Source: Obrimoposthia wandeli (lineage: Eukaryota). From it: a stretch of 64,000 bases of DNA. Position 1 is the stretch's first letter; the number at the start of each line of letters is the position of its first letter. Positions 1 through 57,985 of this stretch are shown piece after piece. The stretch is taken from contig CDROCS010001386.1 of NCBI GenBank assembly GCA_977020255.1, forward strand, positions 1-64,000, written 5' to 3'. The notes beneath the pieces are model-generated. The model saw nothing but the letters and a program-made list of their open reading frames with translations. It had not been told where the DNA came from and ran no database searches. The position numbers were made by a program, and so were the translations under genes.

Positions 1-250
1 TATTCCTGACCTGTCGAATGACATACAATTTCTGATCGATATTGTCAGTTGCTGACGTCTGCAGATGAATGTCTACTACGTGGTTTGTTTTTAGTAAAGA
101 GAATTTCTATGTATATTGCCCGTATTACGTCTTGTCTCCATTTACTGATCATGATCTCATAACTAGCCTTGGTAGTGGTGATTTGTACGATCAGCATGAT
201 TCCTATGATCGTTCGATTCTTAAACTCAGGAACTAATGAAACAAGTCAAA

Positions 251-1600
251 TTACTCATATAGTACGGTCTTTCCTCCAATATGTTCATATATCGTTGGCT
301 GGTACTCTGGTGCTGGTTCATCTAGAAATGGTAGATGCTTGGTATAATTGTGTTGAATTTTTGTAAATTCATTTGACCTGTTCGTCTTGCGAGATCATGA
401 CGTTTCTTTTTTGATCTCGACTCTATCTTTGAACAACAAAACAAGATGAGTAATATTAATATTATAAATCCAATGATCAATTAAGTATTGGATTAACAAT
501 TCTAGAATACCATAACGTACTGTAGTATTCCTTGCTCTTGATGGTTAATATTTTAAATTTGTGTGCACTTTGGTTGGACTTGTCACTGAGAAGCACTATT
601 TTAGTTTGTCCAAATATGTAGTCTTCACATGTGACAACACTAATTCCATAATGTCCACTAGAAGTGTTATCATTTCGGTCATGGGACTATACACATTCGT
701 CCTGGACATCCTTTTACACATGATCATCGGCTTTGCCTTCAGGATGTCTTGATTATTTCTAGGGTGTTGTCTAGATTTCTCAAATGTAAATTATATTCGG
801 ATAGTGTCATCAATTCGGCTTTACTGGTTGGCATGAAAACACGGTACCAATCAATTACTACTCCATAGATCAATCCTTGTGCAACGGTGCACAGGGCCTT
901 GACTGACCTTTTGCGAGGTTTTAATTATCAATCGTTTGAGAGATATCTGTTTCTGATTGGTTCGTTTTGTTGTCTGTCGTTGTTTTTGACATCTCCTCGA
1001 TTCCATCTCGTCCGATAATCAACTTCCTTTGGTTTACCTTGTATCGTCAACTTTCCGAATCCATTTTTGGCGGACAAGCATGTTTTATGTCCTTCCATTG
1101 TTTCAATTATCACTCTCTTACTTCCATACTCACGTGTTTTGATGACATCGCCAATGAATATATACGTTGGTCATATCAACATCTTTTTGTATTTCCTTTA
1201 CAACTCGTTTTCTCCGCTTGCATCCGGCGAATGTTGTTGATATTCGGTCAGAAGTGTGCTGTCGGTCAGCTTCGTAATCTATTCGGAATTGATTCAGTAT
1301 TCTGTTTGTGGGTAAAATATCGCTTCATTTACTATGTTGTCTTCGATCCTTTCGTCTGGAGTACACAAGCACTTTGTTTGTTGGTCCATTTGGTCTTTTC
1401 ATCTTTACAAACTGAAATCTTTTACTGTCGGTTCTCATAGATCGAAGACATTTTCGGATGATCCACACATCAATTAGTCCTAACAACACTAATAGCATCA
1501 TGTCGGTGCCGGCGTATGGTACTGTATGGTGTAGTTGTGGATTTCGTTGAACCAGGAACTATTTCCGTGGTTGGAGCCTATCTCCTGTGCTCCCGTTATT
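251..1600 (-). pseudogene. Frameshifted accessory membrane-protein coding region of the element
   Basis: Manual minus-strand translation gives LIIGFIILILLILFCCSKIESRSKKKR (480-400; TM helix, CC, basic stop-transfer). After a 1-nt shift it continues LDEPAPEYQPTIYEHIGGKTVLYE* (stop 251-253). A second hydrophobic stretch MMLLVLLGLIDVWIIRK lies near 1500-1450. The ORF at 928..1113 is another fragment. Confidence 0.45.
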
Positions 1601-1625
1601 GGCATTAAACAACTTAACAAGCCTA

Positions 1626-2263
1626 TCATGCTAGCAATCTTTGGTATTGAAAGCTGGGCACTGTTGTTGTAGCTTCATTTATTTCTCGTTGTTGCTTCCT
1701 CTTTTCGGTGTATTTTTCTATTTCTCGAACGAGTAACGGTTTGAATTCCGTATTCGGTCTATTCTGTTTGATGTAGACCATCGCTTCTTCTGGCGTGTGA
1801 CCATGGTACTCTACCAACAAGGATACACCTATGGTAGGCGCTAACATCGTACCTTTTTTCTGATATATCAGAACGCCGTTTCCTTCTGTGACTTCAGCTT
1901 GGATGGTTTGAGTCAATTTCGTCAGATGTTGTTGTGCATCGTTTATCTCTCTCGATTGGAAGCATGTATGTATCGAGTGGTGTCATCTTCAGTATTTTGA
2001 CACAGACTAATTATCTCGTTTCCGACTTCAACAATGTTGATTACCCGGTTGATACTGTGGAACTTTAATCCAGCAGTATCTATATCTCCTGGATGACATA
2101 AAAATACTTTTGGCATTATCTGTGTAATTTTGTCGACTCCGGCTAAAAATAACCCGGTCAACGATAATGCTTGGAGGAAATTCTTTTCCTTTGGATCCTC
2201 CGGAATGTCGTCCATCCGTCTTTGTTCTTGCAACAGAAGTTGATAATTTGCCAACTGTCCCAA
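1626..2263 (-). CDS. Second dual-specificity phosphatase-like domain, catalytically degenerate (pseudophosphatase); split by frameshift
   Basis: ITQIMPKVFLCHPGDI...INRVINIV and VLIYQKKGTMLAPTIGVSLLVEYHGHTPEEAMVYIKQNRP align to the DUSP pattern. The P-loop Cys and Arg of HCxxGxSRS are absent. Confidence 0.65.
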
Positions 2264-2267
2264 AAAA

Positions 2268-2650
2268 TTAAGATTTGGGTTTGCAATACTTCTTCTTCTT
2301 CTCCTGTAGGTATTTTAACGCTTCTAGTACCTGCATTCGTCTAGTCTTTATTAGATATGCTAATACTAGGGTTGCTGATCGAGAAATTCCTTTCTGACAA
2401 TGTACCAACACTTTTCCTTTGTTCCGGAGTTCTCTGTGAAGTATTTCGTTTGTTTCTACGAACCATTCGAGAAGATTAGCGTCCATTGAGTCTTTTACTC
2501 TTAATGTCATAGCTCTGATCGTCTGATATTATTGCGATTTGTGATTCATTGTAACGTTGATCACATATGTTATTCCTTGTTCCAACAGTTTCTTTTCATC
2601 TGTTGCATCCTCCACATTTCCGAGGTATAACTTACCTGGAATGATCTCAC
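2268..2650 (-). CDS. Dual-specificity protein phosphatase domain (intact active-site motif); split by frameshift at ~2520
   Basis: MSEIIPGKLYLGNVEDATDEKKLLEQGITYVINVT (ORF 2529..3401) is followed by VKDSMDANLLEWF...GKVLVHCQKGISRSATLVLAYLIKT (ORF 2268..2510), a canonical DUSP signature. Confidence 0.92.
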
Positions 2651-3860
2651 TCATTGGTGGCATTAATTCTGACTCTTCAAGTTTTAGTCTTTCTAACCTC
2701 TTCTCTATTTGTTCGTCGATGTTAGTTAGTTTCGCCAGTTTCTTTCCTCTCAGCATTCGTATTGCTGGAGAGATATTCATTTTTGTCTCTGATGTCTGTT
2801 CCTTTGTTGAGTCTTCTTCCGACTCGGTCTCCTCTGCAGATTTAATTCGTCTTTCTTGTATATTTTGTTTCACGAATTCTATGTTTTGTCTTTTTCTGCT
2901 TTCTTTAGCGAATTCAATCTCCATGGTTCTTCCGAATCGCTCTATTATGTTATCTTCGGATTCTGTTGATTCTGTATCGTTACTTTCCGGTTCGCTGTCT
3001 TCACTAGACTCGCTCGAAGGGTATTCTGGTATGTCTGTCTGAACTGAAATTAATGAAGGTGTTAGAATAATTGGATTGATTTCCCCTTCGTATTTGTGAA
3101 TCGGATACGGTATTACACTATCTTTAAGTATCTCAACTTGGAACTGTGCTCCATAGCACATGACAATTGTTTCCAATTTACCCATGATGGACAATCCATC
3201 AAAATAGGTAACATTCAGCTTAGATATCGGTGTCTTCGCATAATTAATTAAGTTTACTCTTTTCCGGTTGATGACGGCCATCGATTTTTGTAAAGTATAA
3301 TTTCGTCGTTTATCGATGTATGGCATTACACTTGGCGCGGACGATACTATTTCAGCATGATATTTTGGCTGAATTGAGTTGGTCACTTGTTCTCGGATCA
3401 TATTGATTCTTTGTGGCTTCTTATTTTTAGCTTCCCACTTCCGGTATCCGCTGTCAATGCGTAACTCTGCCGTTAACTTTGATGATTTTATTGTTAGTCA
3501 CTTCCGGATGGTTTGGCGAATGGAATCCCCCTTCTATTACGCTCAACCTTACAGATACTTCCGTTTGATCTGTCTCTAACCGGTGAGATTCTGGTATACA
3601 ACATACAATTGTTTTTCCATCAAAGTATTTAGTGTCCATCTGACAAATTATCTTTTCAGTGTCAGCGTCGATTAAATGGACTCTCATGATATCTCTTTTC
3701 CCATGTGAATTACGTAATACCATTGGCCATTACATCGTGAGTATTCTTGTTTGAGTCTTTTTGGCGTACCATGCAGTATGTGACCACCGGCCGGTTCCTT
3801 CTCTTCCTGGGTAGTCCTGCTTCAATTGCTGTCATAGTTCTGCCATGCAACTATGTTTGG
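2651..3860 (-). CDS. Unknown accessory polyprotein segment between integrase and DUSP (acidic Ser/Glu linker; possible divergent domains)
   Basis: ORFs 2529..3401 and 3454..3723 are co-oriented with, and adjoin, the neighbouring ORFs by small frame shifts. No confidently recognisable family. Confidence 0.5.
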
Positions 3861-3862
3861 TG

Positions 3863-5330
3863 TCAATGTGATTTCGTTATCACTTTCTCAGTTGTAAACA
3901 CATTGGAATTTTGATAAAGTGCTGCGACTAATGTATTTCCGTCGTAGTATAACACTCTAAGTTCGCACAGAAATTCGTTTTTGAGTGCATCTTGCACAAT
4001 GACTTCTTGATCCACATCTTTCGGTTGTGTTTTTTCTAAAACGACTATTATCTCTTCGTCTTCTTCTAATATCTCTTGTGGTGCGATGTGTCGGATTACT
4101 TCCTTTTCCTCTTGGTACTTCATTCTGAGCATACCAATTCTCGCTGATTTTTTCTCGCTACCACTCGTCATCATGTTTATGTAGTTCCGATCACTTACCA
4201 TTCGTGTAAGTTTAATGGTATTGGTATTTGGCTTCGATTTCTGTGATCTTAACTCATATCGTGACGCATTATCTTTATTTGGTACTAATTTGCATCGATT
4301 TGCATGTACAATCATCGGTTCCTTGTTCCGATTCTCTTCGTTGATTACTTTCAAATTTGTTGAAGTTGTCTGGATCACCTTGTATGGTCCTTTGTATGGT
4401 CTATGAAGTTTAAACGATAGACCTGGTTCGATGACTGGATAAAATATCATCCACTTGATCTCCGAAATAAATTCATGTGGTTTTGCTTTTTTTGTCGTAT
4501 TGTTCTTGTAACCTTCTTGATTGAATTTCAGCTTCAATCCGGCTTTGGTCCAAGCATCTTGTAACCTTTCCTTCATGACGACAATGTATTGTTCAGTTTC
4601 TAGGTACTGAGATGTTGGCTCGGTCCACTCCAGATCCATTGGCATATTGTTCTGTCTGAGATACATCAGATAGAATGGTGTGTGACCCGTCGCCTCTCGA
4701 ACTGAATTCCTGTAAGCATATAAACATGAAGGTAAATATTTATCCCAATCCTCTTGCTTGTCTGAGCAATAGGATTGTACCATCATACATAAAGTTTTTA
4801 TTAAACCTTTCTACCAGACCATCTGTCTGTGGGTGATATGGTGAAGTTTGTAACTTCATAATTCCGAATATCTTCGATACTGCTTTTATGACTTCTCCAG
4901 TGAAGTTCTTTCCTTGATCCGTTAACAACTTTCTAGGCACTCCGTATCGAAATATTATCTCTTCTACTAAGATTTGCGCTATTGTTTCAGCTTTCTGGTT
5001 CTGCATGGGATATGCTTCTACCCATCTCGTCATGTAATCCGTAAATACTATGACATACTTGTTTCCTTTACTTGATTCTCTCAATGGTCCCAATATATCC
5101 ATCGCTGTGAATTCCATTGGTGCCAAAGGAACTGGCATTGGTTTCAGTGGAACTTTAGTACGAGTTCAAGTGTCTTTTCTGGTTAAACATACTTTACATT
5201 GTTTACACCATTGTTTTTATGTCGTCTTCCATACCATCCCAATGGTTCTTCTCTTTGATTCTGGCTATCGTCTTTCGCCTGACAGATGTCCTCCCAGTGT
5301 TCCATCGTGATATTGGATCATCACTGCTGT
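3863..5330 (-). CDS. Integrase (HHCC, DDE core, GPY/F motif) with C-terminal extension; frameshifted
   Basis: YHDGTLGGHLSG...W...CKQCKVC lies at ~5310-5190. The core reads AMDILGP...TDQGKNF...YHPQTDGLVERFNK, followed by WDKYLPSCLYAYRNS...TPFYLMY and KLHRPYKGPYKV. Confidence 0.95.
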
Positions 5331-5510
5331 TTTCAATGACTTCGGAATTACTACTACTATCTTTCCGACATTATTGACAATATACAAGATTCCTTCTTTT
5401 TATCAGTATTTTTCGTCATTTCATCGTTTAGATCTCCTTTCACCAACAATTCTTTGATTAGACTCAGTTCTTCATCTTCTTTCTGTTCTTTGATGATCTC
5501 TTTGTCTATT

Positions 5511-6900
5511 TTACCCGTCTTTAGCAAAATCGTCAGTAGATTTTGCTTCTCCTTTTTGGTCATTGGTTTCATCTTCTTCTGGAATTATGTTTCCTTTCTC
5601 GTCTACATTTGTCAATCTCGATAAACAATCTGCGTTGCCATTCGACTTTCCGGTTCTATAACGGATTTCTAGATCGAATTCGGCCAATTTTAGAAACCAT
5701 CTGTTTAATCTACTCATCTCATCTCTATGTTTATATAAGAACTGTAGTGGTTTGTGATCTGTATACAGGAATACCTTTTGTCCTAGCAAATAGTGTCTGT
5801 ACTGTCTACATGAATACACTATGGCTAGACATTCCTTTTCGATAACAGAGTATCCTCTTTCGGCTCTGTTTAATCCTCTACTTGCATACGCAATGACGTG
5901 TTCTCTTCCTTCGTCATCCTCTTGTCCCAATACTGCTCCTACAGCATAGTTACTTGCATCTGTCATGAGTATGAATTGTCGGTTTATATCTGGAAACGCT
6001 AATATTGGTGCTTTTATCAATCTTTCTTTTAAATGCTCGAACGCTTGTTGAGCTTCTTCTCCCCATATGAACTTCTCATCTTTTCTCGTCAACTTTCTCA
6101 ATGGTGTTGCTATATCTGAAAAATGTTCAACAAATCGTCTATAATAATTCGCAAGACCTAAAAAACTCTGTATCTCCTTAACAGTCTTTGGCGCTAGATG
6201 CGCTTTTACTTTCTCGATCTTTGCTGGATCAGGTCGGATGCCTTCTTTCGATACTATATGTCCTAAAAATGTTACTCGCTCTTTAGCCCATTCGCATTTT
6301 GTAGGTTTAACTTTTAATTTAGCGTTTTCCAGTCTTTTAAATACAACTTCAAGATTTTTTAAATGTTCTTCGAACGTTTTCGAAAATATTATTATGTCAT
6401 CAATATAAACCATCGTGTTTGCACACGATGCGAGTACAAAATTCATGCAACGCTGAAATGTTGCTGGAGCTCCTGTCAGTCCGAATGGCATCTTTTTCGC
6501 ATTCGTATAATCCATCTCCGCAGGAAAAGGCTGTTTTGTGTTTATCCTCTTCCTCTATCTCGATTTGCCAGTATCCACTCTGCAAATCCAATGTCGTAAA
6601 ATAATCTGAATTACCCAATTTATCGAGCATCTCTTCGATTCTAGGTAATGGATACACATCTTTTCTTGTGATCTTGTTCAGTTCTCTGAAATCTATACAG
6701 AATCTCATTTTCCCATCCTTCTTTTTTTACCAACACCACAGGTGCTGAGAATGGCGAAAAACTCGGTCTAATTACTCCTGTTTTAGACATATCTTCGATC
6801 TGACTTTTTACTTCATCTTGTAATTGTAATGGTACTCGGTATGGTCTTCTTCTGACTACTTTGTCTTCTGTCAGTGGTATTGTGTGTTTTATGACAGGTG
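5511..6900 (-). CDS. Reverse transcriptase + RNase H; frameshifted at ~6725 and ~6500
   Basis: RFCIDFRELNK...YPLPRIEEML...LDLQSGYWQI, MPFGLTGAPATFQR, VYIDDIIIFS; RNase H TDASNYAVGAVL...EKECLAIV...TDHKPL. Confidence 0.97.
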
Positions 6901-6906
6901 TTTCTC

Positions 6907-7300
6907 CTATGTCATATGGATTTTTGCAATTACTTTTGGAAATTTATGTATTAGATCAAGTAATTGTTTCTTTTCTCTAGTTGTCAGTCTTTCTGATTGG
7001 ATTACTATTTCTTCGTAATCATTCGTATCTTTATCGAGTTTCATAGCGCATACAGTGGAATTCTCCATCTGTGCTATCTTTCCCAACCTCATTCCTCTGT
7101 ATAATAGAATGTCATTGTTGGTTGTATTCATCAGTCTAACTGGTATTTTGTGGTTTTCGATCAGACATACTGTACTCACAACTGGTAATTCGTATTTCTC
7201 TATGAAATCTCGTGATGGTTCGAACACAACTGGTCCTTTATCTTCTGATAATGTGTGACCTTGAATGAAATTGTGATCTTTTACCGATTTTTATAGGATT
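6907..7300 (-). CDS. PR-RT spacer region of Gypsy pol
   Basis: IPVRLMNTTNNDILLYRGMRLGKI resembles the spacer commonly seen upstream of RT in invertebrate Gypsy pol. It is linked to both neighbours by 1-nt shifts. Confidence 0.6.
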
Positions 7301-7313
7301 CTCTATAATTACA

Positions 7314-9377
7314 TCAATTTGGTTTTATTTGTCTGTTTGATGTACTATCCTTCAATCTTGGATCTTGTAAATCAATGCTTATCCCTTTAAGTTGTGATAG
7401 TACATCCATTCCTAAAATTGTAGGTTCAGGACATTCTTTCATGATTCTAACTGGTATAGTGATCGTATTACGTCCAATTATAAATGTACATGGTAATATT
7501 CCCGTCACTTTTACAGGGTCTCCATTGACCGATACCAAGAATTCATCTGGTTCTGCCATTGTTCGTTTCTGTTCCTCTGTCAAACAGTCTTCACTTACTA
7601 TCGAAGCTACAGCACCTGTATCAATTAAAGCTTTTACTCGTAAATTATTTACTCTAATGATAGCTGCTGGTCGCTGTGCTCCATTTATGTTTCCCATATG
7701 GTATATTGTATTTATCGAATTATTACACTCTGTCCGTCCACTTCCTATGTTTGGATAGTGAAATCTAATGTTTCTCACTTGTCGATCTATTATTCTTCGA
7801 CAAATCGGACATGATACCATTTCATTCGCACATCTCCGACATGTTCTTACATGTCCGCATGGTAGAAAGGCAACTTCTATTTTGTTGACCATGCAAACTG
7901 CGCATTCCGGATCTTCTAGTATGTATTCTAGTTCATTTATGTACTCTTTCTCTTTTGTTTCAATTGTACTGTCATCTTTATCTCGCAGTAATTCAAAAAT
8001 CGATCCGTATCCGTTTCGCGTAGTTTTTATTTTTAATTCTACCAATTCTCTGATTCTTTCTGCTTCTTTTGGATATAATCTTCTCACGAATGACACTACC
8101 GGTGTGTCTTGTTGAGCCAAAATCTCTTTCCGTGTGATTTGGTATTCGATTATACATTCGGTTTTCTGTTCCTTTTGCTTTATTTTGTTTTTTAAAGTAC
8201 AAAATTCGCAAAATTCATGATGTAAAATTTTCTTAGGTAGCTCAAGAGTGTATCTGTCGATAATTCGTTCTTTTTTACACTTGTGGCATTTAATTACGTC
8301 TTTACTTTTTGCCAATTTTTTAAGTCTTGGATCTTCGAAAGTTACTTCTCGATACTGTTCGTCACATTCGTTCACTTCTCGCATAACTTCGAATATATCT
8401 TCAATTCGACTATTCGTTATTACTCTACCTGTTATTAGAGCTGATTCTCCTTTTGGAATCCCGTCACTGTAATCGAAATCGGGTGCTTTTCCCATTTGGA
8501 TTTCTGGTACGTTTGACGTTTTCAGTTTCAAAAGAAATGGACAATTTGGTGCATCTCTTTTATGACGTCTCATTGGGTTTTCATTCTGTTCCCATTCTCT
8601 AAACTTTACTCTACACCATACGCATCGTACTACTATCTCCTGACCATAACTGCTTGTCGCGTTTAACATTTCTAAACCTGATCTTGCCATTTTACGTGCC
8701 ATTCCTTTTGAATAGTACTGTTCTAGTATGTTTCGTCTCTTTCTCTCGAATCTCATGGGATCCCTTTCTGACAGATTTACATATGTTATTTTTCTCCTCG
8801 TCGTATCTTGTGGTCCGAAATTTACATTTTTGTAGTGAAGTATCGACTTTGCTAGCGCTTCCTGTTTTTTGTCTGGGTACGAACTTCCCATACGGAACGT
8901 AGTGCATTTTTCCTTTTCGACTATAGGTCCTCTCAACATTTTTATCTCTCTCACTGAACTGTCATTCTTATTACTCTTGTTGTTTGGTAGTATAATTATT
9001 CCTTCAAACATTCGTATTACGTCCATCCCAATCATGACTGGACTACCGCAATCTGTGAATATTCTAGCATTCAACTGCAATGCTCTTCCATCGATATTCA
9101 ATGAACATTTTAGTGTTCCTTCCGACACTACATCTGTACCATTCACGTTAACAAATGTCTGTTTTCTAGGACATACTTCTCTTAATTCTTTTGATGACAA
9201 GATTTCTTTACTCAGTACTGATACTGCAGATCCGGTATCAACTTCGGCAAGATATTCTCTTCCGTTCAATGTTACTGCTACTTGTGGTGGAGCATTTGGA
9301 TTCTCATTGGATATCCTAGACTTCAGAATTCTTCTGGAATTATCTTTTTGTCTTTTCCTCTGCTTGTGGAATCTCAC
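7314..9377 (-). CDS. Aspartyl protease 1 - BIR - degenerate BIR - RING (IAP module) - aspartyl protease 2
   Basis: PR1: LAEVDTGSAVSVL...MIGMDVI. BIR1: CVWC-x16-H-x6-C (CVWCRVKFREWEQNENPMRRHKRDAPNCPFL). BIR2-like: TF..LA..DVIKCHKC-x18-H-x6-C. RING: CAVCMVNKIEVAFLPCGHVRTCRRCANEMVSCPICR. PR2: ALIDTGAVASIV...ILGMDVL. Confidence 0.92.
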   Translation of the reverse strand: MRFHKQRKRQKDNSRRILKSRISNENPNAPPQVAVTLNGREYLAEVDTGSAVSVLSKEILSSKELREVCPRKQTFVNVNGTDVVSEGTLKCSLNIDGRALQLNARIFTDCGSPVMIGMDVIRMFEGIIILPNNKSNKNDSSVREIKMLRGPIVEKEKCTTFRMGSSYPDKKQEALAKSILHYKNVNFGPQDTTRRKITYVNLSERDPMRFERKRRNILEQYYSKGMARKMARSGLEMLNATSSYGQEIVVRCVWCRVKFREWEQNENPMRRHKRDAPNCPFLLKLKTSNVPEIQMGKAPDFDYSDGIPKGESALITGRVITNSRIEDIFEVMREVNECDEQYREVTFEDPRLKKLAKSKDVIKCHKCKKERIIDRYTLELPKKILHHEFCEFCTLKNKIKQKEQKTECIIEYQITRKEILAQQDTPVVSFVRRLYPKEAERIRELVELKIKTTRNGYGSIFELLRDKDDSTIETKEKEYINELEYILEDPECAVCMVNKIEVAFLPCGHVRTCRRCANEMVSCPICRRIIDRQVRNIRFHYPNIGSGRTECNNSINTIYHMGNINGAQRPAAIIRVNNLRVKALIDTGAVASIVSEDCLTEEQKRTMAEPDEFLVSVNGDPVKVTGILPCTFIIGRNTITIPVRIMKECPEPTILGMDVLSQLKGISIDLQDPRLKDSTSNRQIKPN

Positions 9378-11504
9378 TGTAGCTCACTTTAGGCCATCTT
9401 ATCATTAAGATGCCTCTCTTGAACTTTTCCTTCTCTTCCTTTAATTCCTTCATTGGATATAGGTTTAACGCCACTTCTTCCTTGTCTGGTAACGGAATCT
9501 TCGGTTTTCCTGGTATCTTTGCATATACTCCTGGACTATCATTATCGTCGTCGTTATCGTCTCGATAGTTTCTTGGTTCTCTCATCATGGTTCTCGTTTG
9601 GTGTTGTTCCTTCTTGAGGGCTCGCAACTCGTTCTCGTGATGATGGTGCATTAGATATTTTGCTAAAAATGGAAAACATCCAATTATAAGTTGCCAGGTG
9701 ATTCCGGTTATCCTGTATAAACTATACGTAGACAACACCTGGGCTATAATTACCTGCACAAATTTAATTATAACATAAATACCTATGATACCCGAAAATA
9801 ATTGTCCTAAGACAAGGAATTTCCCCCACATCTTTCTAAGTGTCTGATGTGCTGCTTCCTTGAAATGACTTGGCGATAATAACATATCGAAATTCGCATA
9901 TCTCGCTCCTGGCGGTAATGCTCGATGTACCATCTCCGTAAGTACTCTGGCTCTTCTTACTGGAAACATTATTTCGTTCCACGCCGCTTTTAAATCTTTT
10001 TCATTGTACAATCCTGCGCTCTCCATATTTTCCACCGCTTGGAATTTCATTTTACCTTTAAGATTCGTCATTCTTATCATCGCTGGGGTTTTCGTTGCCT
10101 TCCGATCAGGTAACGTTATCCATAGATTATTCGTCATCTGATATTCAGGTGCCATTATATTAGAGCAGCTGATTTCTTTAGTTGGAGTGTCTTTTGGAAG
10201 TAACATTCTCGTGATTGGTTCAACAAAAAGATCTTTTAGATTATACGTTACTGCCAATTCACTCGTACATCGATTTGTTTTTCTCAACTGTACCTCTACT
10301 TTATTACACTTGTAAGTATACAATACTTCTCCCATGGTTTTAGCAAATACTCCTTCATCCAAGGGTAATAATGGTGCTACCATGTCTGGATTCGTAATAG
10401 CTAATGCTAACTTTGTTCTTACGATCTCTTTGTTTAGCTGGCAATCTCTTTCGATCATCATTCGATATAACTGTTCCATTTGCATCAATCCTTTATGATA
10501 ATAGAAATCAATTTTATTATTAAAATACGTGTGTAGCTGCATATCTTTAGGTTTTAGCTTGGTTTCTGCCAATGCTATTGCTTCTTTAGACAAAACTATT
10601 CCTGGATAGTTTGTAGTACTAACAGTCATTCCGCATCGCGCTTTGTTTCTCTTTTTAATAAATATCAATCCTTCTTCTATTGATGTTGCCATTAACAGTG
10701 TAGGTGTTTTTGTCATTGGGATTGGTCTTGTTTCATTTAACAATCCTTTTCCTGCTTTATTATACAGGAACCCTTCTCCATCCTTATTATACAGGAATCC
10801 TTTTATTTTATTAAAGCTAATCTCTTTCAAAAATACTAAAGAGCATTGCTTCGGATTTATGTTATACACAATTGTGGATTCACCTGTAAAACAAGATGCA
10901 TCTGTCATTTTACATTCTGGATACTTCATCATTAGTTGTGTCTTTTTATCAAAATTGGCGGTCCATGTTTTTAATTCGATTTTGTAAGTTACATCCATTA
11001 CTAACTCAGATACTTTGGTTCCACGCACGTTTTTTGTTTCTCCGTCACAAGATCCATCAGCCCATCGTTGTCCGACTCTCGTGACTGTTTCGTATCGTCT
11101 CACTCCAATTTGTACTTCAGGTTTGTAATTCTTGTCTACCTCTATCGTTCCGTTCGAAATGCATCTTCGCAATCTCTCGGCAAAACCTTATGTGCCTTGT
11201 ACGGTGTGGTAGGTGTGATTTCTGACATAAAACTTCTATGACCACAATAGAATTCGTGATAACTTGAATGGATTGAACATTCTTTCACTTCTACTTGTAC
11301 TTTATCAACATCCTGATACACAAAGTAGTTTTCAACACCTTGAACTTCTAGTTTTGACGGTTGTGATTCTGGGCAGTCTTCGCTGTCAAGCAGTGAATAC
11401 TTTTGTCCCATCTTTGGTATGCTACAGTCATATGCTATCAATCCTGATGCCTGTTGCATTCCCATAAACATTACTAACATCATCATCATCATTGTTGTGG
11501 ACAT
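9340..11504 (-). CDS. Envelope glycoprotein, chuvirus/Jingchuvirales-like (class III fusion-type); N-terminus encoded at the end of the gag ORF
   Basis: Signal peptide MSTTMMMMMLVMFMGMQQASG then LIAYDC...SLLDSEDC. A 1-nt shift at ~11150 joins the 610-aa ORF containing YFNNKIDFYY...DCQLNKEIV...GEVLYTYKCNKVEV...CTSELAV..LFVEPITRML and a C-terminal hydrophobic region. Confidence 0.8.
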
Positions 11505-14500
11505 ATTTGGTTGATTGTTTCTCTCTTTCGGACGGTATTGTTTATTTTCTCTTTGACGATTCTCATGACATTGTTCGTCATCGTCTTCGTTCATTTCCAC
11601 AATGGTTTTAGCGTAGTCACTTAATTTTGCCCAACCTCCGTTTTCGTCAATTCGTCTCTGTAATACATTCTCGATCAAATACATCGCTTCATTTATTCCT
11701 TGTTTGACTTCGTGAGGTTGGCTCGTTCGTTCCGTCAATTGGAAACATAGATATGTGATCGCTGTAATTAACTTTTTATTTGTAGTCTGGTTTCCACATA
11801 ATCTCGCTAAAACTTCACCGTCATAAAATCTATCTATCGATGCATGGTATACATGATTCGCGGTCATTCTCTTTACTGCAGACATCTGTGATCTAACTGC
11901 TTTAGTCAAATTGTCTGTTATATCGGTTGTTTCATCTCTGTACATTTTAAACAACTTCGGCTTCACTTGCCTGAGAATTCCCGTAAGTATATCTTTACTA
12001 CTTGGAGTTTCCGAATTCATATCACCTCTGATATCTTCATTCCTCTCTGCACTATACTGCTCTAATGACGCTGCTAACTGTCCAATACTTAGATGTCTCT
12101 CTTCATCAGTTTGTGGTGCTGTTAGAACATTTCGTAATATACTTTCGCCTTTTCTAGGTCTTCCAGGTCCTCTTCGAAAATACTGATACTCAGCTTGATT
12201 CTCTCCTGGATCATACGTTTCACCATTATACTGTATCTCTTGACTTGGTCCTTCTTCATGGCCAATCTCTTCATTTTGTCGCATCATTTGCTCTGCTTGT
12301 CTATCTTTGTATGCGGCATGCCAAATTGGTGAATCCAAATCTACAATCTCGGAGACTTCGTCTTCTCCTACTAGTTGGGTTACGGTTTCGTTTTGTCTCA
12401 CTTGGTTAGCTGTATCCGTGACTTCATCTTGTCTGATTGGAATTATATCTGGTTCTGGTGGCACCTCGACCACTGGAGTTGTCAACTCATTTTCTAAATT
12501 CATGTCTTGTAATTCAGCTACGTACGGTTCTGGTGTGGATGTCTTGTTCCAAGCTTCAGCTACATCATTATCTCCGCTTTCACTTGAACTGTCTAAAATT
12601 TCTATAGGCGTTTTTATCATTTCTAACGCAGAATTCAATATCTCGGTTAATCCTTCATTATCTACTAACTCTTGACGTCCTACAGTGATGACATCAATTT
12701 TTTCCTCTAATTCATTTCCTATCGGATATCCAAACTCGACTGGTACGTCCTCATCATCTAGTGATCTCACTTTATAATGGAACAACATATTCATTCCATC
12801 AATTTCAAGTTTCTCAGCCAAGTTTTTCCGAATCGTTTTCATTGTTTGATACACGTTAAGTTTTTCATGTATTATCTGTCCGGAAATTAATCGAAGTGAA
12901 ATTTTCATCGTTCCTTTTTGGTTTGATCTCTGTACATAACGACCATAACCTTTCAGTAATCCTCGGGGTACTTCTTTGTAACCCAAGTTATCATGACTAT
13001 GTTTAACCAATTCTGCACGCACTTCTTCCAATCGGTGCACTTTAATTGTTTGCAATTTGGCCAAAACTTCTGGAGCTTCACTCGTTTCATCTAACGGTTG
13101 ATTTAACGTCTCCTTAGCTTCACTAATTATCTTTTTTACATTTTCCATACTCGTAGCATTTCTTGCTGCTTCTACATGATCAGTCATAGGTTGTGCGTTA
13201 CACGTTTTCTCTATTGGTGTCTCATACGCTTCTAATATTCTATTCATTAAATCATTCATCTCTTCTCTCGAATGTGGACTTCTCTCTTGTTTCGACAACG
13301 TAGATGAATTCGCCATCTTTGTATGTGGTGAATCTTTAATTATTCCCAACATTCGTTCAAATTTACTATCACTATCCTCAAAATCTATTTCGCGTCGCAG
13401 CTCGGTTTCGCGATTCCTATCACTGTCATCGCTTACATAACTAAAATTTCCTTTCGGTTTCGGCGAACTCTCTCGACTATTTGTCTTGTCGACATTATTA
13501 TTATTATATCTACCAGAATTATTATATCTCTCAGCTCCTTGCTGTCCTACGTAATTATTGTATCTCTCAGCTCCTTGCTGTCTGTCTGCATAGTTATTGT
13601 ATCTACCTGGTGACTGTTGTCTATCTGTATACTGATTATTCAGTCTCCATGGCTGTGGAGTATATCCACCACCTCTATTCCATGGCGGAGGTGAATTATA
13701 TCCTCTATAATTATTTCCAAAATTATTATTACCGAAATTATTATTTCCAAATCTGTTAGTTCCGAACTCTTTACTTCTCGTACAATCTCTCGAATAGTGA
13801 CCCATTTGTTTACACGTGTAACACATTATTCTCCCTCGAATATCTATCTTATTTTGTTCATCTTCGAACTGTACTCGACGACTATTCTGTCTATTATCAT
13901 AGCGTCCTCTAAAATCATTTCTTCGGAAATTCGATTCAAAACCGCTTCCTCGATTATTGAATCTTCCGTCACTATTTCCTGCATTATTTCCAAATCGAGA
14001 GTCACTTCGCTCTCCTCTGTTTGCATTATAATTCCTATCGTCTCCTCTCCAAGGTTGGCGATTTCCTGAATTATCTCTATTAAATCTATTCCTGGAATCA
14101 TCTCTATTTCTATTCCACGAATCATTATTATTTCTACCTCTTGAATCATCTCGATTCCTGTTCCAAGACTCACTATTATTTCTACCTCTCGAATCATCTC
14201 GATTCCTACTTCGGAAATTATCTCTATTTCCGTTACTGGATTCATCTACTTTTTCAAACTTATTTTGTCCATAATTTCGATTCTGAAAATTACTCGGTTC
14301 TGTTTTATTCACGAAGACCTTTGTCTTATCGTCGTCACCTGCAGTCATTGCGTAGATTGCCAATGCTGCGTTATTTTTTATATTTTTCTCAATCTCTCTC
14401 GCCTTTCGTACGGCGTTATCAAAATCATTTGTATCCGATACTGCTAATAACACTTTAATATCCTTTTTCAATCCTCCTCTAAATATATCTAACAAGACCT

Positions 14501-15396
14501 CTGCCATTTCATTTTGGTTCCGGTCATTTTCCGCTGCTTGTGCTTCTGGAGCTACAGGATTACCGTCCTGATTTCTCATTATTCTTCTTGGGTACGCTCT
14601 TGCGGCCAAGGTTCTCAAAACATACGCGTATTCATTCACGCCTTCATCATGTTTCTGTTTCCGTTCTCTCATGAGTCGCTTATTTACTTTGGCTAAGTCT
14701 CCTAATACCAATTTTCCAATAAAAGCATTTTCCAACGTTGGCCAGTCTAAACGTTCTGCTTCTGTCAAATGTTTATACACTTCAAGTGCTAATCCGGTTA
14801 AATGTGCCTGTACTCTGACACATTTTTCTTTATCGTTCCATCCTTGAACATCTGCACAACTCGAATATTCTGCGAGGAAGTCACAAATACTTTCCTCATC
14901 TCCTTTAAACTTTGTAATCTGCAATGATCCTGAAAAATTGGGTCTCAACGTCGCATTTAAAGCTTGTGCCAACTGCTCGGCATTCATGTCACCTACATTA
15001 TTTCCTGCATTATTTTCTGCTTGAGCTCCTGGTTGAGCCATATTTTCAACTATAACTTCTTCAACTATTTCTTCAATATTATTCAATGGAACTTCCTCAA
15101 TCACTACTGGATTGGCAATTTCAAATTCTTCTTGGTCTATGTCACCAAATAATTCAGTCAAATTAAAACTGCCGGTTGAAACCGCTGATTGATCAACGTC
15201 TCTTTCTGATACGTTTTCTTCGACTCTAGTCTTTTCTGTTACTTTGTTATCTGTTTGGGGAACCTGTTCAATTCGGTTAACTTTATTATTATTTATCTCT
15301 TCCTTGGGAATCTGACTTTGTCTTCTAGTATTATACGCGGGTCCTTTTCTATTATCCGTTGTCTTATCAATTATGTATTCGTTTACGATATCAATT
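11142..15396 (-). CDS. Extended Gag polyprotein: capsid, R/N/D-rich repeats, CCHC knuckle, ubiquitin-like domain, AT-hook, Bcl-2-like domain, Env signal peptide
   Basis: Capsid-like FKGDEESICDFL...GWNDKEKC...LTGLALEVY...RKQKHDEGVNEYAYVLRTLA; CYTCKQMGHYSRDC at 13782-13824. The reading frame is open upstream of the listed start to a stop at ~15397. Confidence 0.88.
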
Positions 15397-15494
15397 TACT
15401 TATTATTTTTATCTTATTTCACAATTCTTATTTTACGATTTTTTATCTCTTTAATTAGTTCGAGGACAGAGTCTCCCGACTTAACTTATTCAAT

Positions 15495-16235
15495 TAATTA
15501 CTTCGAGTATCAATCCACTCGATTCTCACTTATCAAATTTACTGGCTCGAGGAACAAATCCACTCGACTTCTCAAAACCTATCAAACTCTTAACTTCGAG
15601 GAACAAATCTACCCGATTTCTCAAAAACTTATCAAATTCTTAACTTCGAGGAACAAATCTACCCGATTTCTCAACACTTATCAAATTCTTAACTTCGAGG
15701 AACAAATCTACCCGATTTCTTAAAAACTTATCAAATTCTTAACTTCGAGGAACAAATCTACCCGATTTCTCAACACTTATCAAATTCTTAACTTCGAGGA
15801 ACAAATCTACTCGATTTCTCAAAAACTTATCAAATTCTTAACTTCGAGGAACAAATCTACCCGATTTCTCAACACTTATCAAATTCTTAACTTCGAGGAA
15901 CAAATCTACCCGATTTCTCAACACTTATCAAATTCTTAACTTCGAGGAACAAATCTACTCGATTTCTCAAAAACTTATCAAATTCTTAACTTCGAGGAAC
16001 AAATCTACCCGATTTCTCAACACTTATCAAATTCTTAACTTCGAGGAACAAATCTACCCGATTTCTCAACACTTATCAAATTCTTAACTTCGAGGAACAA
16101 ATCTACTCGATTTCTCAAAAACTTATCAAATTCTTAACTTCGAGGAACAAATCTACCCGATTTCTCAACACTTATCAAATTCTTAACTTCGAGGAACAAA
16201 TCTACCCGATTTCTCAACACTTATCAAATTCTTAT
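15495..16235. repeat. Tandem array, 49-50 bp unit, ~15 copies, in the element's 5' leader
   Basis: Unit CACTTATCAAATTCTTAACTTCGAGGAACAAATCTACCCGATTTCTCAA, with period 49 measured at 15661/15710. Confidence 0.95.
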
Positions 16236-16289
16236 CTCAATTTACTTATATCTTCTTCTGAACTTATTCTCAATTGTCTATATTCTTCT

Positions 16290-16590
16290 GCTGAAACTTA
16301 TTCTCAATTTATCTGAAACTTATTCTCAATTTATCTGAAACTTATTCTCAATATCTGAAACTTATTCTTAATACCTGAAACTTATTCTTAATATCTGAAA
16401 CTTATTCTCAATATCTGAAACTTATTCTTAATATCTGTACTTATTCTCAATATCTGAAACTTATTCTTAATATCTGTACTTATTCTATTTACCTGAAACT
16501 TATTCTCAATTATCCGCAACTTATCTGAACTTATTCTATTCACCTGAAACTTATTCTCAATTATCCAAAACTTATCTGAACTTATTCTAC
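16290..16590. repeat. Tandem array, ~19-20 bp unit, in 5' leader
   Basis: Repeated CTGAAACTTATTCTCAAT(A/T) variants. Confidence 0.85.
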
Positions 16591-16615: not shown

Positions 16616-16634
16616 ATCCTCACTCGGGGCACCA
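16616..16634 (-). promoter_or_regulatory. Primer-binding site complementary to elongator tRNA-Met
   Basis: The minus strand reads TGGTGCCCCGAGTGAGGAT, 8 nt after the LTR's CA end. It matches the 3' end of metazoan elongator tRNA-Met (human complement TGGTGCCCCGTGTGAGGAT from memory, 1 mismatch). Confidence 0.8.
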
Positions 16635-17048
16635 CTTTAATATGTTGGGGTTTCTATACGAAACTTGGTATAGAGCCTCTTAGTGTGCGGAGGACCCCAA
16701 CGTGAGTTCGATTAGAAGCAGGTCTTAAAGTTGGTCGTGGCCTACTTAGTGTTATGGTTGCCTAATCTCTTGTACTATCTGAAGGTGTTTGATTTGATGT
16801 CTCTTAGTCTGAAGGGTGTAAAAACAACTTGTTCTAATGTAGGAAATTGTTTATTCAAAATTCACGTAACTAACACCACAATACGTTTATGTACGTATTT
16901 CTAAAAAGTATGATAAAATTCCTAAAGGACTTCTGTGAGTCTCTACAAGAAGTGGGGATGAACCACGTATCGATTTTACGCTAAGGGGAATCGAGATTTT
17001 TAGAGTTGTTCCTTTAACTCGAGAATAAGCTCAAATTATAGATTTTCA

Positions 17049-17642
17049 AAAACTTTATTTTATCTTGGACAAACTTTAGATTATCAATACGCAATGAAGG
17101 GTAAAATCTTCTTTTAGATCGGATAAAACTTTATTTTATCTTGGGCAAACTTTAAATTGTCAATACGCAATGGAGGGTAAAATCTTCTTTTAAATCGGAT
17201 AAAACTTTATTTTATCTTGGGCAAACTTTAAATTGTCAATACGCAATGGAGGGTAAAATCTTCTTTTAAATCGGATAAAACTTTATTTTATCTTGGGCAA
17301 ACTTTAAATTGTCAATACGCAATGGAGGGTAAAATCTTCTTTTAAATAGGATAAAACTTTATTTTATCTTGGGCAAACTTTAAATTGTCAATATGCAATG
17401 CAGGGTAAAATCTTCTTTTAATCGGAAAAACTCTTTAAATTATCAATACGAAATGCAGGGCAAAATCCTCTTTTAATCGGAAAAACTCTTTAAATTATCA
17501 ATACGAAATGCAGGGCAAAATCCTCTTTTAATCGGAAAAACTCTTTAAATTATCAATACGAAATGCAGGGCAAAATCCTCTTTTAATCGGAAAAACTCTT
17601 TAAATTATCAATACGAAATGCAGGGCAAAATCCTCTTTTAAT
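17049..17642. repeat. LTR tandem arrays: 76-bp unit x~5 grading into related 55-bp unit x4
   Basis: Periods 17201/17277 and 17421/17476/17531/17586. Confidence 0.9.
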
Positions 17643-19192
17643 CTTTACTCAATAAAGGCCAAACTTCCTTAAATTTTCGGTCTTTATACCTTTATTTTCT
17701 CCGAAATCACTGGATCCTCGTCTCCTAGTATAGTCTGCTCGAGTTGGCGAGATCAGGAAATAGATTGAAATTAAATAGACTGGAGATAACTGGGAATTTG
17801 CTGCCTTGTGGTCTATTCCTCGGTAGATCGCGATATTGATTTTTCCGGTTGTAATTTCTTTTTCTTATCGACGACTTTTATAGTCGATTCTACAACTCCT
17901 GTCTGTCAGTCAGCAATGTCGACAGCGGTTTCACTGGAGTCTTTTGCGGCAGCTGAAAATTAATTTTAACACTCCAAATTAACTGCACGAAAATGTGCTT
18001 ACCTTGATTGACGGTTTGATTGACGTTGCTAATTTTCTTTTTCGACTATAATTAATTCTAATGTTTCCTTTTGCTTTTTTGCACTTTTAGTTGATTAATT
18101 CTAACTTTTATACACATTTCACACTATACACGACCTTCGTGGTCCTCCTAATTTTTACCCTAAATTCCACTAATTTTAATTCTAAAACTTAAATTAATAT
18201 TTTAATTTAATTTTCAACCTTGCTTTCAAGGATTTTTATTTTAGTATTTAATTTACTAAAATATTTAATTTTCTTAATTCTCAACCTTAACAAATTAGCC
18301 TAATAGATTTTGGCTCAAAAAAACTTACATTGAGGAATTGTTGAGACGTCTGGCAGTTGGCCGGTTCTCACAGTTTCTCACAGAGTTAAGTGGTTGCAGA
18401 ACAGGTGGCGAATTCCCACAATATTTTTCTGATTTTCTTCTTGTTTTCTTCTTCTTAATTATTGACTCTAATAATTGGAATTCTTTGGGCCCTTTTAATA
18501 ATTTTAAAATCTCTTATATATACCTACACAAGAAACATGACTCTTCAAGGTCTTAAATTTATTCAATCCCATTTTATTTAATTTAACATTTTTTAGTTAT
18601 TTATTTCACTTTCTTTAACCTTACTTTTAGGGTTATATTTTCTATATATATTAATTAAATTCAAAATCCTAATCCTAACACCTTTATTAATTCAATTTTA
18701 TCAAATTTAATTCGTATATAGATGTTATATCTATTGAAATTGTTAGGTTTAGGAATTAGAAAATTAAAATAATTAGTTGATTTTATACTAAAATAAAAAT
18801 CCTTGAAAGCAAGGTTGAAAATTAAATTAAATATTAATTTTGAAATTCAAAACTAAAATTATTGAAATTAAGATAAATATTAGGAGGACCACGAAGGTCG
18901 TGTATAGTGTGTGGTATATAAGGTTAGAATTAATTACTAGTAAAGTGCAAAAAAAGTGAACAATATAGAAAACTGCCAACGTCAGCAGAAAAAAGAAAAA
19001 CCACTAACGTCAGCAGAAACGAAAAGGTAATTAATTAAACATCTGCCAATTTCTGATATTTATGGAATCAGTTGAAATTGACAGAAGCAAAAAACCCAGG
19101 GCGCAACAAGGATCGGTCGAAGCAGCAACCGGAGCAGCAACAGGCAGGTGGTAATTTAGTGGTAGTGCTCGGTTTTAATCGATTATTTAGAT

Positions 19193-19488
19193 CACAATCA
19201 AAGTCGACTGTGCAGATTATTTGAAAAAGACATTTAATTGGAAAACCCAACGACAATCAAAGTCGACTGTGCAGATTATTTGAAAAAGACATTTAATTGG
19301 AAAACCCAACGACAATCAAAGTCGACTGTGCAGATTATTTGAAAAAGACATTTAATTGGAAAACCCAACGACAATCAAAGTCGACTGTGCAGATTATTTG
19401 AAAAAGACATTTAATTGGAAAACCCAACGACAATCAAAGTCAACTGTGCAGATTATTGGAAAAGACATTTAATTGGAAAACCCAACGA
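19193..19488. repeat. LTR tandem array, 59-bp unit x5
   Basis: Unit ACAATCAAAGTCGACTGTGCAGATTATTTGAAAAAGACATTTAATTGGAAAACCCAACG. Confidence 0.95.
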
Positions 19489-19562
19489 CTAGAAAAATCC
19501 ATCTAATTACCAAGCAGCGGATTCAGTGCCGGACTCTACCCACAGTTACGGATAGGTGAGAC

Positions 19563-20055
19563 GTCTCGCATAAATTCATTGTCCGAAGTTGACAATTAGG
19601 TTTTAACAATTTTAACTTGTCTCGCATAAATTCATTGTCCGAAGTTGACAATTAGGTTTTAACAATTTTAACTTGTCTCGCATAAATTCATTGTCCGAAG
19701 TTGACAATTAGGTTTTAACAATTTTAACTTGTCTCGCATAAATTCATTGTCCGAAGTTGACAATTAGGTTTTAACAATTTTAACTTGTCTCGCATAAATT
19801 CATTGTCCGAAGTTGACAATTAGGTTTTAACAATTTTAACTTGTCTCGCATAAATTCATTGTCCGAAGTTGACAATTAGGTTTTAACAATTTTAACTTGT
19901 CTCGCATAAATTCATTGTCCGAAGTTGACAATTAGGTTTTAACAATTTTAACTTGTCTCGCATAAATTCATTGTCCGAAGTTGACAATTAGGTTCTAACA
20001 ATTTTAACTTGTCTCGCATAATTTCATTCATTGTCCGAAGTTGACAATTAGGTTC
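19563..20055. repeat. LTR tandem array, 56-bp unit x~8.5
   Basis: Unit GTCTCGCATAAATTCATTGTCCGAAGTTGACAATTAGGTTTTAACAATTTTAACTT. Confidence 0.95.
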
Positions 20056-22496
20056 ACGAAATCATTGTCCATCGTTGACAATTAGGCCTTTATACGAATC
20101 ATTGTCCACAGTTGACAATTCGCGTCTGAATTCATAACAATAGAATTTGCCGAGTTAAGAAAGCTTTACCCACACGATCTAAGTTAAGTTGAAGAAGTTT
20201 TAAGAGAGTTGTGTTATAAATTAACCAACCTAGAAAGAAGATTTGCATTCGCACCTTTATTGTCATAAGAATAAAGGTTAAACCTCCAAAATTCAAGCCG
20301 ATAGCAAAGTTAAATTATTGAGAAATCCATAACGCGAGCTTATTCTCGAGTTAGAAGAATAACTCTAAAATCTCGATCACTCCGAACGTAAAATCGATAC
20401 GTGGTTCATCCCCACTTGTTGTAGAGACTTACAGAAGTCTTAGGAATTTTTACTATACTTTTTAGAAAATACGTACATAAACGTATTGTTGTGTTTAGTT
20501 TCGTGAATTACCAATAAACGATTTCCTACATTAGAACAAGTTGTTTTTGAACCCTTCAGAGTAAGAGACGTCAAAACAAACACCTTCAGATAAGAAAGAG
20601 AGATAGGCAACTATAACACTAAGTAGGCCACGACCAACTTTAAGACCTGCTTCTATTCGAACTCACGTTGGGGCCCTCCGCACATAAGAGGATCTGTACA
20701 AGTTTCGTATAGAAACCCCAACAAAATAAGTAATTTGTAAACAGTTTATGACACTATTGCTTGAGGTATGGATTTTATTAAAAAATAAATGTAGGATACA
20801 TTATTTAATATGTTATATTAATTCTTTCACATAGATAAAATTAAAGTTAATATCAATGGTTTTGAATTAGTTCGAAGTTCCCATTTATTATTAAAATAAA
20901 TCTTATAACTTCTAAAATAGTTTATTTTATGTTCAAACTCAAAATTATATTTATTCTTGTTAACATCACATGTTTATTTACGCCAATAAGCATAAAATTT
21001 GAAATATTACAAACTTAAATTCAGATTTTCTCTTTAAAAATACATGTATATATATTTATATTTAGCCAATTTTACGTATAAATTCGTCATCAATTTAATA
21101 TTATTAACCAATAAAATTATTATGAATATGATTGAAGATGAACCATAAGATTTTTCCATTGTTATACTTAAATAATATTTAATCAAATATAATTAATTGA
21201 TATTTCGAGTATTTTTATCCAAAAATTTGAAGTATGGCAATAATTGAATTCACAAATATTTAATTAAGATTCAATAGCTAGGAGGTCATGTAATCATAGT
21301 AAAATACAATAATCTAAATCAAGTTTGCATCATATCGATTTGCTACTGGAGCAAAAGAAAATAGAAAGAAAGTACAATGGTGCATGAATAAGAGTTCACC
21401 TCACAGAACCGATCAGACTGAGTATGAGAAAATAAGTAGAACAAAAACAGATATCGTAGTAGTAACAGTAACAGGCTCCGCCTTTTAAACAGTAGGAATC
21501 GGTCTAGCATCAACTAACTACGTTCATACAGTATCATAAAATATTTCAATAAAAATAGCATGATAGAAGCGACAAAAATCGAGAAATATGCCTAAGGTAT
21601 TAGTATAAAAATAATTTTACATAAATTATTATTGTATTGATTAATTTCATATTTAAATTACTATGTTAAAATTATTAAATTGACAATTAATATAAATTAT
21701 ATATAAAAAGTTGTTTTAATCCATTTTCTGCATGAATAAGTAAGTCAAAATGGCGATAATTAAAAGGTGCATTTATCATCATTTAATAAAATTAGGCATT
21801 GTTATGGATGTTTATGTGAGCTTAATATGAAAGTTAAGAGAGCTCAGGTACAAATAATGAATATATTGTTTCTTGCATAAATTCCTACTGTATGGAAGCA
21901 ATGTAAAAGTACGAATTTTATAAGAAGTTTTCTAAGCCTTCTAAACGAGATTGTATGTTTTACGCAAAATGCATATTAAAGATTGCATAGATTTGATTTT
22001 TGGGTGATAATATATACTAATGTATTCCGTATTCATTTCTATATACAGTTAATAGAATTAGAATGTGTCGTAACTATTCAGAAAAAAACAAATTTAAGGT
22101 ACTTTAGTTAAATTTCAATACGTTTATAAAATTAACTAATATAATTTATAAATATTTATGTTAAAAAACATATTCAATGTGTTATTCTTAGATTTTTGTG
22201 CTGTTGTATTTAAATGCCTTTGGTTGTACGTGCTCTTCAGGCCAACTCTGATTCTAATCGACTGTACTTCGTAGAATATCAGACTTGTCATGACAAAAGT
22301 ACCAGTTTTCGAGACATGTCCTGGAAATAGGTCAACTACGTATTGAACAAGATAGTTGTACTATTTCCAAGAAGCTGCGAAACTGACTTTTGACGACGTT
22401 GTCCGACAGTCCACGATCTATGCATATATCTGTGTATACACAATTGTTGGGTGCTGTCTGATGACCTGTGCATCATCACCATGGCGGTGGTACTCC

Positions 22497-57591: not shown

Positions 57592-57985
57592 GATATATGT
57601 CACAGACTAGCTTGGCGATGTACGGATGTCTCGCTCTCATATATGTCACAGACTAGCTTGGCGATGTACGGATGTCTCGCTCTCATATATGTCACAGACT
57701 AGCTCTGCGATGTACGGATGTCTCGCTCTCATATATGTCACAGACTAGCTTGGCGATGTACGGATGTCTCGCTCTCATATATGTCACAGACTAGCTCTGC
57801 GATGTATGGATGTCTCGCTCTCATATATGTCACAGACTAGCTTGGCGATATACGAATGTCTCGCTTTCAAATATATGTCACAGACTAGCTTGGCGATGTG
57901 CGAATGTCTCGTTCTCATATATGTCACAGACTAGCTTGGGTGATGGGCGAATGTCTCGCTCTCGTGTATATCACTGACTACCTCG
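57592..57985. repeat. 46-bp tandem array inside left Polinton TIR (~9 copies; ~4 copies in right TIR)
   Basis: Unit ATATATGTCACAGACTAGCTTGGCGATGTACGGATGTCTCGCTCTC, period 57601/57647. Confidence 0.92.

Follow-up and report, generated by a model that had tools for sequence, protein, structure and literature searches.

Env in the frame of Gag and Pol

Can the envelope gene (env) of a retroelement lie between gag and pol and be read in a single frame with both? The question is raised by a stretch of 64,000 nucleotides from Obrimoposthia wandeli (GenBank assembly GCA_977020255.1, contig CDROCS010001386.1, positions 1 to 64,000), hereafter called the window, for which a preliminary description had placed env between gag and pol in the Gag frame, with the envelope signal and the LIAYDC N-terminus inside the Gag open reading frame (ORF). 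We found both to be so, and the frame to extend further: since the junctions are mostly open in other copies of the element and uninterrupted frames reach 5,478 aa, the native gene is one Gag-Env-Pol polyprotein frame of ~5,400 codons. The window probably holds a Burro-like Ty3/Gypsy endogenous retrovirus (a GAG-ENV-POL errantivirus), present here as a decayed copy from a family that was active until recently; its full-length RNA would yield one polyprotein with the membrane topology proposed below.

Three long minus-strand ORFs follow one another in the window, namely 15395-11142 (1,417 aa from stop to stop), 11187-9340 (615 aa) and 9383-7314 (689 aa). The first bears a zf-CCHC domain (aa 525-539, E 9e-6) and a weak Retrotrans_gag match (E 0.008), and it also ends with a Met-rich hydrophobic stretch from 11504, LIAYDC at 11441 and the start of PF24664 (Monjiviricetes_fusion), with aa 1301-1416 corresponding to profile positions 4-118 (E 1e-12). 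PF24664 is matched again in the second ORF, which lies in a different frame (E 3.6e-77) and has one transmembrane (TM) segment at 9825-9724, while the third contains two aspartic proteases with a BIR and a RING domain between them. The domain order of the element is Gag-CCHC, Bcl-2 fold, internal signal, class III env, TM, protease, BIR, RING, protease, reverse transcriptase-RNase H-integrase (RT-RH-IN) and dual-specificity phosphatases.

Junctions were counted in other copies from three locus sets, after removal of five duplicates. The first two sets were chosen by long-stretch likeness to the window and are thereby biased to gap-free copies, which leaves the third (n = 29) as the least biased. 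The junction from signal to ectodomain was open in 67 of the 72 distinct other copies and shifted in five, and that from the env tail to protease 1 was open in 36 out of 46, with nine shifted and one showing an in-frame stop. Between the CCHC knuckle and the signal the frame was open in 26 of 29 copies and had an in-frame stop in three; a genuine stop separating Gag and Env in intact copies, named in the preliminary description as evidence against its proposal, is thus not the majority state. In the 50-nt bin near 11,150 all 29 compared copies carry a gap relative to the window, as do 25-26 of the 29 near 9,300-9,400. The frameshifts at these two places are therefore peculiar to the window copy; the one near 11,150, repaired in the preliminary description by restoring one G, may be a true mutation or an assembly error.

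A genome search with the Bcl-2 segment gave 150 scored copies, all identical at the protein level. Around this segment, open frames of at least 4,000 aa were found in six of the 150, the longest being 5,220 and 5,478 aa. Further downstream, a single frame from RING to phosphatase was present in two of 29 pol loci, and one from protease 2 to phosphatase in a third.

Identity of the envelope protein

Homology to viral fusogens, which the preliminary description had suspected from a chuvirus-like motif pattern, was found with PF24664 as well as with structure comparisons. When env was compared to 1.84 billion proteins by phmmer, 1,185 matches were obtained at E 0.001; the closest (29-45%) were long polyproteins, and the rest mostly free glycoproteins of 650 aa at ~25%. 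A structure model of the ectodomain, made from the window's own 442-aa piece (predicted local distance difference test, pLDDT, 89), retrieved chu-like virus glycoproteins from BFVD (E 4e-21) and herpesvirus gB in every listed row from the PDB (best E 4e-5, TM-score ~0.3). By VIA, gB aligned over 136 residues (Z 8.3, root-mean-square deviation, rmsd, 3.8), followed by thogotovirus Gp. When PDB sequences were queried with the env profile, no match passed the threshold (E 0.06-0.4), although gB was named in 29 out of 29 rows. Env is a class III fusogen, the ectodomain of which keeps its cysteines and the class III fold and is constrained as much as the capsid.

The signal segment (11442..11504) has a best 12-aa hydropathy of 2.1, compared to 2.5-3.1 in relatives. 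In all seven relatives in which the YDC motif was located (the pattern missed nine others), a hydrophobic stretch lies ahead of it. Unlike the window copy, relatives mostly lack a Met at the signal head (upstream 30 residues), so that an internal signal is more likely than a start of its own.

A Bcl-2-fold domain beside the signal

Immediately upstream, segment 12014-11592 aligned with the pre-env segments of two of the six relatives compared (E 9e-14 and 2e-10), and a four-row profile of it matched Bcl-xL (E 1.6e-4); Pfam alone gave a weak match (E 0.058). In VIA the structure model of the segment (pLDDT 81.5) reached Z 13.5 and rmsd 3.5 over 145 aligned residues, with the top 37 rows all belonging to the Bcl-2 family or the Bcl-2 fold, and Foldseek gave a TM-score of 0.64. 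An ESM Atlas search with the region returned only unnamed clusters under 0.9, and a word-based protein search none out of 109 candidates. The neighbor of the env signal is a Bcl-2 domain and not the capsid. The capsid-signal-glycoprotein polyprotein envisaged in the preliminary description therefore holds as regards the single frame but is incomplete, as Pol is also in frame and the Bcl-2 domain intervenes between capsid and signal.

Copy number, age and selection

Allowing for one mismatch, we counted 4,285 genomic occurrences of a 20-mer from the start of env (control: 0), which points to ~4,300 env-bearing copies; were every one of them complete, they would make up as much as ~7% of the assembly. 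All 40 scored matches between the window and the family were 97-100% identical. In five other copies the paired long terminal repeats (LTRs) were 99.9, 99.8, 97.7 and 94.9% identical, the fifth pair being alike only in part, and the 99.8-99.9% identity in two of the five supports recent activity. The decay of the window copy and the recent activity of its family are part of an overall explanation that we hold to be probable.

Ratios of nonsynonymous to synonymous change (pN/pS) were calculated pairwise among natural copies, the pairs not being independent. The ectodomain gave 0.08 (13 of 15 copies, without stops) and the TM segment with the tail 0.05, next to 0.08 in the capsid, 0.04 in Bcl-2 and 0.03 in protease 1. 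Upstream of the first Met (15041) the ratio was 0.49, versus 0.08 in the capsid, and no amino-acid difference was seen in the linker and signal when 17 copies were compared (pN 0). Env is under purifying selection, and since constraint on the frame alone would not suppress amino-acid change, Env itself must have been needed by the source lineages.

Anatomy of the element

The features identified in the window, given in window coordinates, are the following.

16643..18292, minus: 5' LTR of 1,650 bp, TG...CA, with internal tandem arrays (match to the 3' LTRs of other copies)
16617..16634, minus: primer-binding site (PBS), 8 nt inside the LTR end (recurring 17-mer)
15432..16570, minus: untranslated leader containing tandem arrays of 49/50-nt and 20-nt units (repeat listing)
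14361..15041, minus: Gag capsid region and likely start Met at 15041 (first Met; Retrotrans_gag E 0.008; likeness to the capsid of relative P0004)
13779..13823, minus: single CCHC zinc knuckle within an R/N-rich region (PF00098, E 9e-6)
11592..12014, minus: Bcl-2-fold domain (structure model and profile match to Bcl-xL)
11442..11504, minus: internal signal-like hydrophobic segment preceding LIAYDC (hydropathy)
11150..11441, minus: N-terminal env ectodomain in the Gag frame (PF24664 profile 4-118)
9826..11150, minus: remaining class III ectodomain, chuvirus G / herpes gB-like (PF24664, E 3.6e-77)
9724..9825, minus: env TM segment (hydropathy 2.3)
9340..9723, minus: env cytoplasmic tail, the window copy being frameshifted near 9,300-9,400 (copy comparison)
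9018..9281, minus: aspartic protease 1, DTG (PF13650, aa 35-122)
8532..8702, minus: BIR domain (PF00653, E 6e-9)
7782..7913, minus: RING finger, making an IAP-like BIR+RING pair (PF13920, E 6e-12)
7383..7676, minus: aspartic protease 2 (PF00077/PF13975)
5511..6943, minus: reverse transcriptase and RNase H, with several frameshifts in the window copy (PF00078, PF17917, PF17919)
3863..5330, minus: integrase (zinc finger, core and C-terminal part), broken in the window copy (PF00665, PF22938; PF17921 in another copy)
1626..2700, minus: two dual-specificity phosphatase domains 3' of the integrase, broken in the window copy (PF00782, E 1e-4)

In another copy PF00782 is matched at E 2.5e-40 in two stretches. 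The window start cuts off the 3' end of the element; from end to end, three copies flanked by matching target duplications measure 22.7, 23.6 and 23.7 kb. Its LTRs measure ~1.7-2.1 kb, and 4-bp target duplications were seen in three of the four copies having both ends located. The PBS 17-mer recurs at 5,408 genomic sites (control: 0), and the PBS is set 8 nt inside the LTR end in the window (spacer 16635-16642) and in eight out of eight other copies; the usual distance is 0-3 nt, narrower than here. ARAGORN identified no tRNA at any of 10 PBS loci; the PBS is putatively of the tRNA-Met type.

The interval 16643-20723 was considered as a single 4-kb LTR and rejected, as other copies show a 1.65-kb LTR and an opposite solo LTR. 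The latter, of a sister subfamily, occupies 18741-20723 on the plus strand (83-88% in two blocks), lies head to head with the 5' LTR at a distance of 448 bp and has a 4-bp target duplication. An inverted LTR just upstream was also present in one of eight other copies, and such solo or inverted LTRs perhaps reflect a taste for inserting near kin.

Toward the 3' end, copy L114 contains three short RING-finger accessory ORFs (3093-4671, E 5e-10 to 4e-7) in the interval from the polyprotein to the 3' LTR. The two aspartic proteases flank the BIR+RING pair (7383-9281, minus strand), and two or three protease stretches are present in the relatives P0002, P0005, P0010 and P0015. No dUTPase was matched by Pfam between protease 2 and RT at E 10. 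Downstream of the phosphatases (window 1-1620, minus strand; copies L111-L115) runs a long frame with at least three hydrophobic segments, in which Pfam recognized no family above the cut-off. Judged by its sequence, it appears to be a second membrane module; TM-like segments after the integrase also occur in relatives P0010, P0013, P0016 and P0023.

Relatives and known elements

Among 16 long relatives scanned, PF24664 shared one chain with protease and/or RT/IN in 13 and was preceded by a Gag-type domain in four, with both in three. Relative P0004 has the order capsid, knuckle, weak Bcl-2, env, protease and ankyrin, the last also found in P0010; its Gag matches Retrotrans_gag / Ty3_capsid, and whole-protein BLASTP against it aligned the Gag part only. 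The compact relative P0017 (1,352 aa) has env straight after a Gag-like region and, by eye, no Bcl-2-like GGW segment, so the fused layout may not need Bcl-2.

The element has a Ty3/Gypsy Pol (PR-RT-RH-IN), as indicated by domain order and Pfam models. It also shows what characterizes GAG-ENV-POL errantiviruses, i.e. env between gag and pol, a gB-like class III ectodomain between signal and TM, LTRs, a PBS and multiple near-identical copies. The nearest published counterpart is Burro of planarians. According to the Burro section of PMC6431247, its ORF of 4,873-5,140 aa comprises a Gag with knuckles, domains of the BCL2-like, BIR and ankyrin types, and an env situated after BCL2 and ahead of protease, which that section presents as the first case of an in-frame env between gag and pol. 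Compared by published description, Burro / GYPSM1 and our element share Gypsy affiliation, one ORF of ~5,000 aa, a Gag with CCHC, BCL2-like and BIR domains, a RING-type finger and an env that matches mononegavirus fusion proteins and is read in frame with the BCL2 before it and the protease after it, as well as thousands of copies, tandem repeats and accessory ORFs (PMC6431247, same section). The present element resembles Burro in the way it works; Burro exceeds 30 kb, however, whereas our element has ~23 kb and is therefore filed as Burro-like and not as Burro. Burro further has two or three knuckles according to that section, as opposed to one here, where the LTRs are ~2 kb. Ankyrin, MATH/TRAF, SUMO-like and dUTPase-like domains, which vary among the Burro families described there, had no Pfam match here, HHpred having been used in PMC6431247. 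Conversely, the two proteases flanking BIR+RING, the two phosphatases after the integrase and the three RING accessory ORFs go unnamed in its Burro section.

PMC13524379 reports GAG-ENV-POL gypsy elements with a gB-type (HSV/gB) env in Nematoda, Bryozoa and Platyhelminthes, including six in Schmidtea mediterranea with coding spans of 14.5-18 kb. Gene order and env class agree with ours, and by eye its env rows have the same motif order as the window env. Its main text does not use the words 'polyprotein', 'in-frame' or 'Burro' and leaves the fused frame and tethering undiscussed, although its figures or supplements may show fused ORFs. In its available text, PMC11410931 mentions Burro only in passing. 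The layout is thus already in print and no discovery; what is new is the smaller size, the phosphatases and the RING accessory ORFs. Literature searches found no report of a phosphatase in a gypsy polyprotein. The element offers a clean, young and very high-copy example with selection on env, in which the open questions around Burro-like elements become observable, namely whether enveloped particles are formed, how enough capsid comes from a single frame, and whether the Bcl-2, IAP and phosphatase domains act on host cell death.

Proposed mechanism and alternative explanations

The following steps are drawn from general knowledge of membrane protein biogenesis, applied to the frame, domain order, env class, selection and recent copying observed here. 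Full-length RNA would be translated into one polyprotein, the internal signal of which would open translocation and thread Env into the endoplasmic reticulum. Host signal peptidase would cut before LIAYDC, and the env TM segment would stop transfer, so that the tail and Pol end up on the cytosolic side. The cut signal would keep Gag-Bcl-2 attached to the membrane, in the way known for the capsids of alphaviruses and flaviviruses. The structural polyproteins of these viruses resemble the present one in topology, since a single chain carries the capsid, an internal signal and the glycoprotein; they are unrelated RNA viruses with class II fusogens, and no homology is claimed. The cut signal would also provide the Bcl-2 domain with a C-terminal anchor like that of cellular Bcl-2 proteins. 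Pol would remain tied to the Env tail until freed by the element's proteases, particles would assemble on the Env-bearing membrane, and the Bcl-2 and IAP domains would protect the producing cell from death. Co-translational membrane tethering of Gag is plausible from this topology.

Several points weigh against this explanation. The scheme is drawn from genomic DNA, and a single frame would give Gag, Env and Pol at 1:1:1, an awkward ratio for ordinary capsid assembly if no step supplies additional Gag. The hydrophobicity of the signal is moderate in the window copy (no 19-aa span exceeds 1.5), and the signal is Met-rich and begins with Met, which leaves some room for a separate env mRNA. The TM-scores to gB are low (~0.3), owing to the missing N-terminal part of the model and to a different arrangement of domains. 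The majority of copies carry a break at some point, and 17 out of the 29 in the least biased set have a shift somewhere inside env; decay is therefore common, and the junctions are not special.

This last finding also bears on the idea that Gag, Env and Pol are separated by programmed frameshifting or stops at the broken junctions. Such sites could account for the shifts between env and protease (9 of 46 copies) and for recurrent gaps at 9,800 (9 of 29) and 10,650 (7 of 29), but shifts are equally common inside env, where only damage is possible, every junction is mostly open, and frames above 5,000 aa exist, which makes the idea very improbable. It is unlikely, though less remotely so, that the frame is real while most Env is translated from an RNA of its own, produced by splicing or an internal start and beginning with the Met run at 11504, a shorter RNA supplies Gag, and only Pol depends on the polyprotein. 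The signal does begin with Met and contain a run of Met, and single-ORF elements must solve the problem of Gag excess, for which splicing is a known route in copia-type elements. Relatives, however, mostly lack a Met at the signal head, the linker and signal do not vary in amino acids among the 17 copies, and the long frame reaches Pol only through the signal and TM segments.

Also rather unlikely is the proposal that the element retains Env for use as a membrane scaffold inside cells or for cell fusion, with movement only within cells or between touching cells and no free enveloped particle. It agrees with the Burro section of PMC6431247, where provirus status is given as a hypothesis only, but the retained cysteines and class III fold of an ectodomain constrained like the capsid speak against it. 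The most improbable alternative is the BEL/Pao element with a chuvirus glycoprotein (Anakin-like) to which the preliminary description pointed. The glycoprotein family is indeed shared with Anakin and thus with mosquito Pao elements, as stated in 10.1101/2020.02.15.950899 and PMC13524379, Anakin differing in being BEL/Pao and from mosquitoes. Yet Pol here matches the Ty3/Gypsy-type models PF17917, PF17919 and PF17921, and Gag is of the Retrotrans_gag / Ty3_capsid kind seen in P0004. No Pao peptidase model was matched in the Pfam scans, and there is a single knuckle; which models mark Pao, and that several knuckles are a Pao trait, we take as given. Going by its Pfam models, the element is Ty3/Gypsy and not BEL/Pao.

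The single-polyprotein reading can tentatively be carried further. The element may be an active enveloped invertebrate retrovirus with particles built from one 5,400-aa chain, in which the Env signal doubles as the Bcl-2 tail anchor and so holds both Gag and a domain that blocks apoptosis at the membrane bearing Env. The IAP, phosphatase and RING ligase modules and the second membrane module after the integrase might then subvert the host in the manner of large DNA viruses. A tail-anchor role of the Env signal for Bcl-2 was not found in literature searches.

Surroundings of the element

Three further stretches of the window on the minus strand (24305-24847, 34810-35124 and 42648-42968) are proline-rich and PDZ-like by eye, the first having no Pfam match, and are likely exons of a host gene. 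Another three, at 57412-62802, 35861-38083 and 31362-32683, are bounded by inverted repeats with arms of 59-214 nt and are likely non-autonomous DNA transposons.

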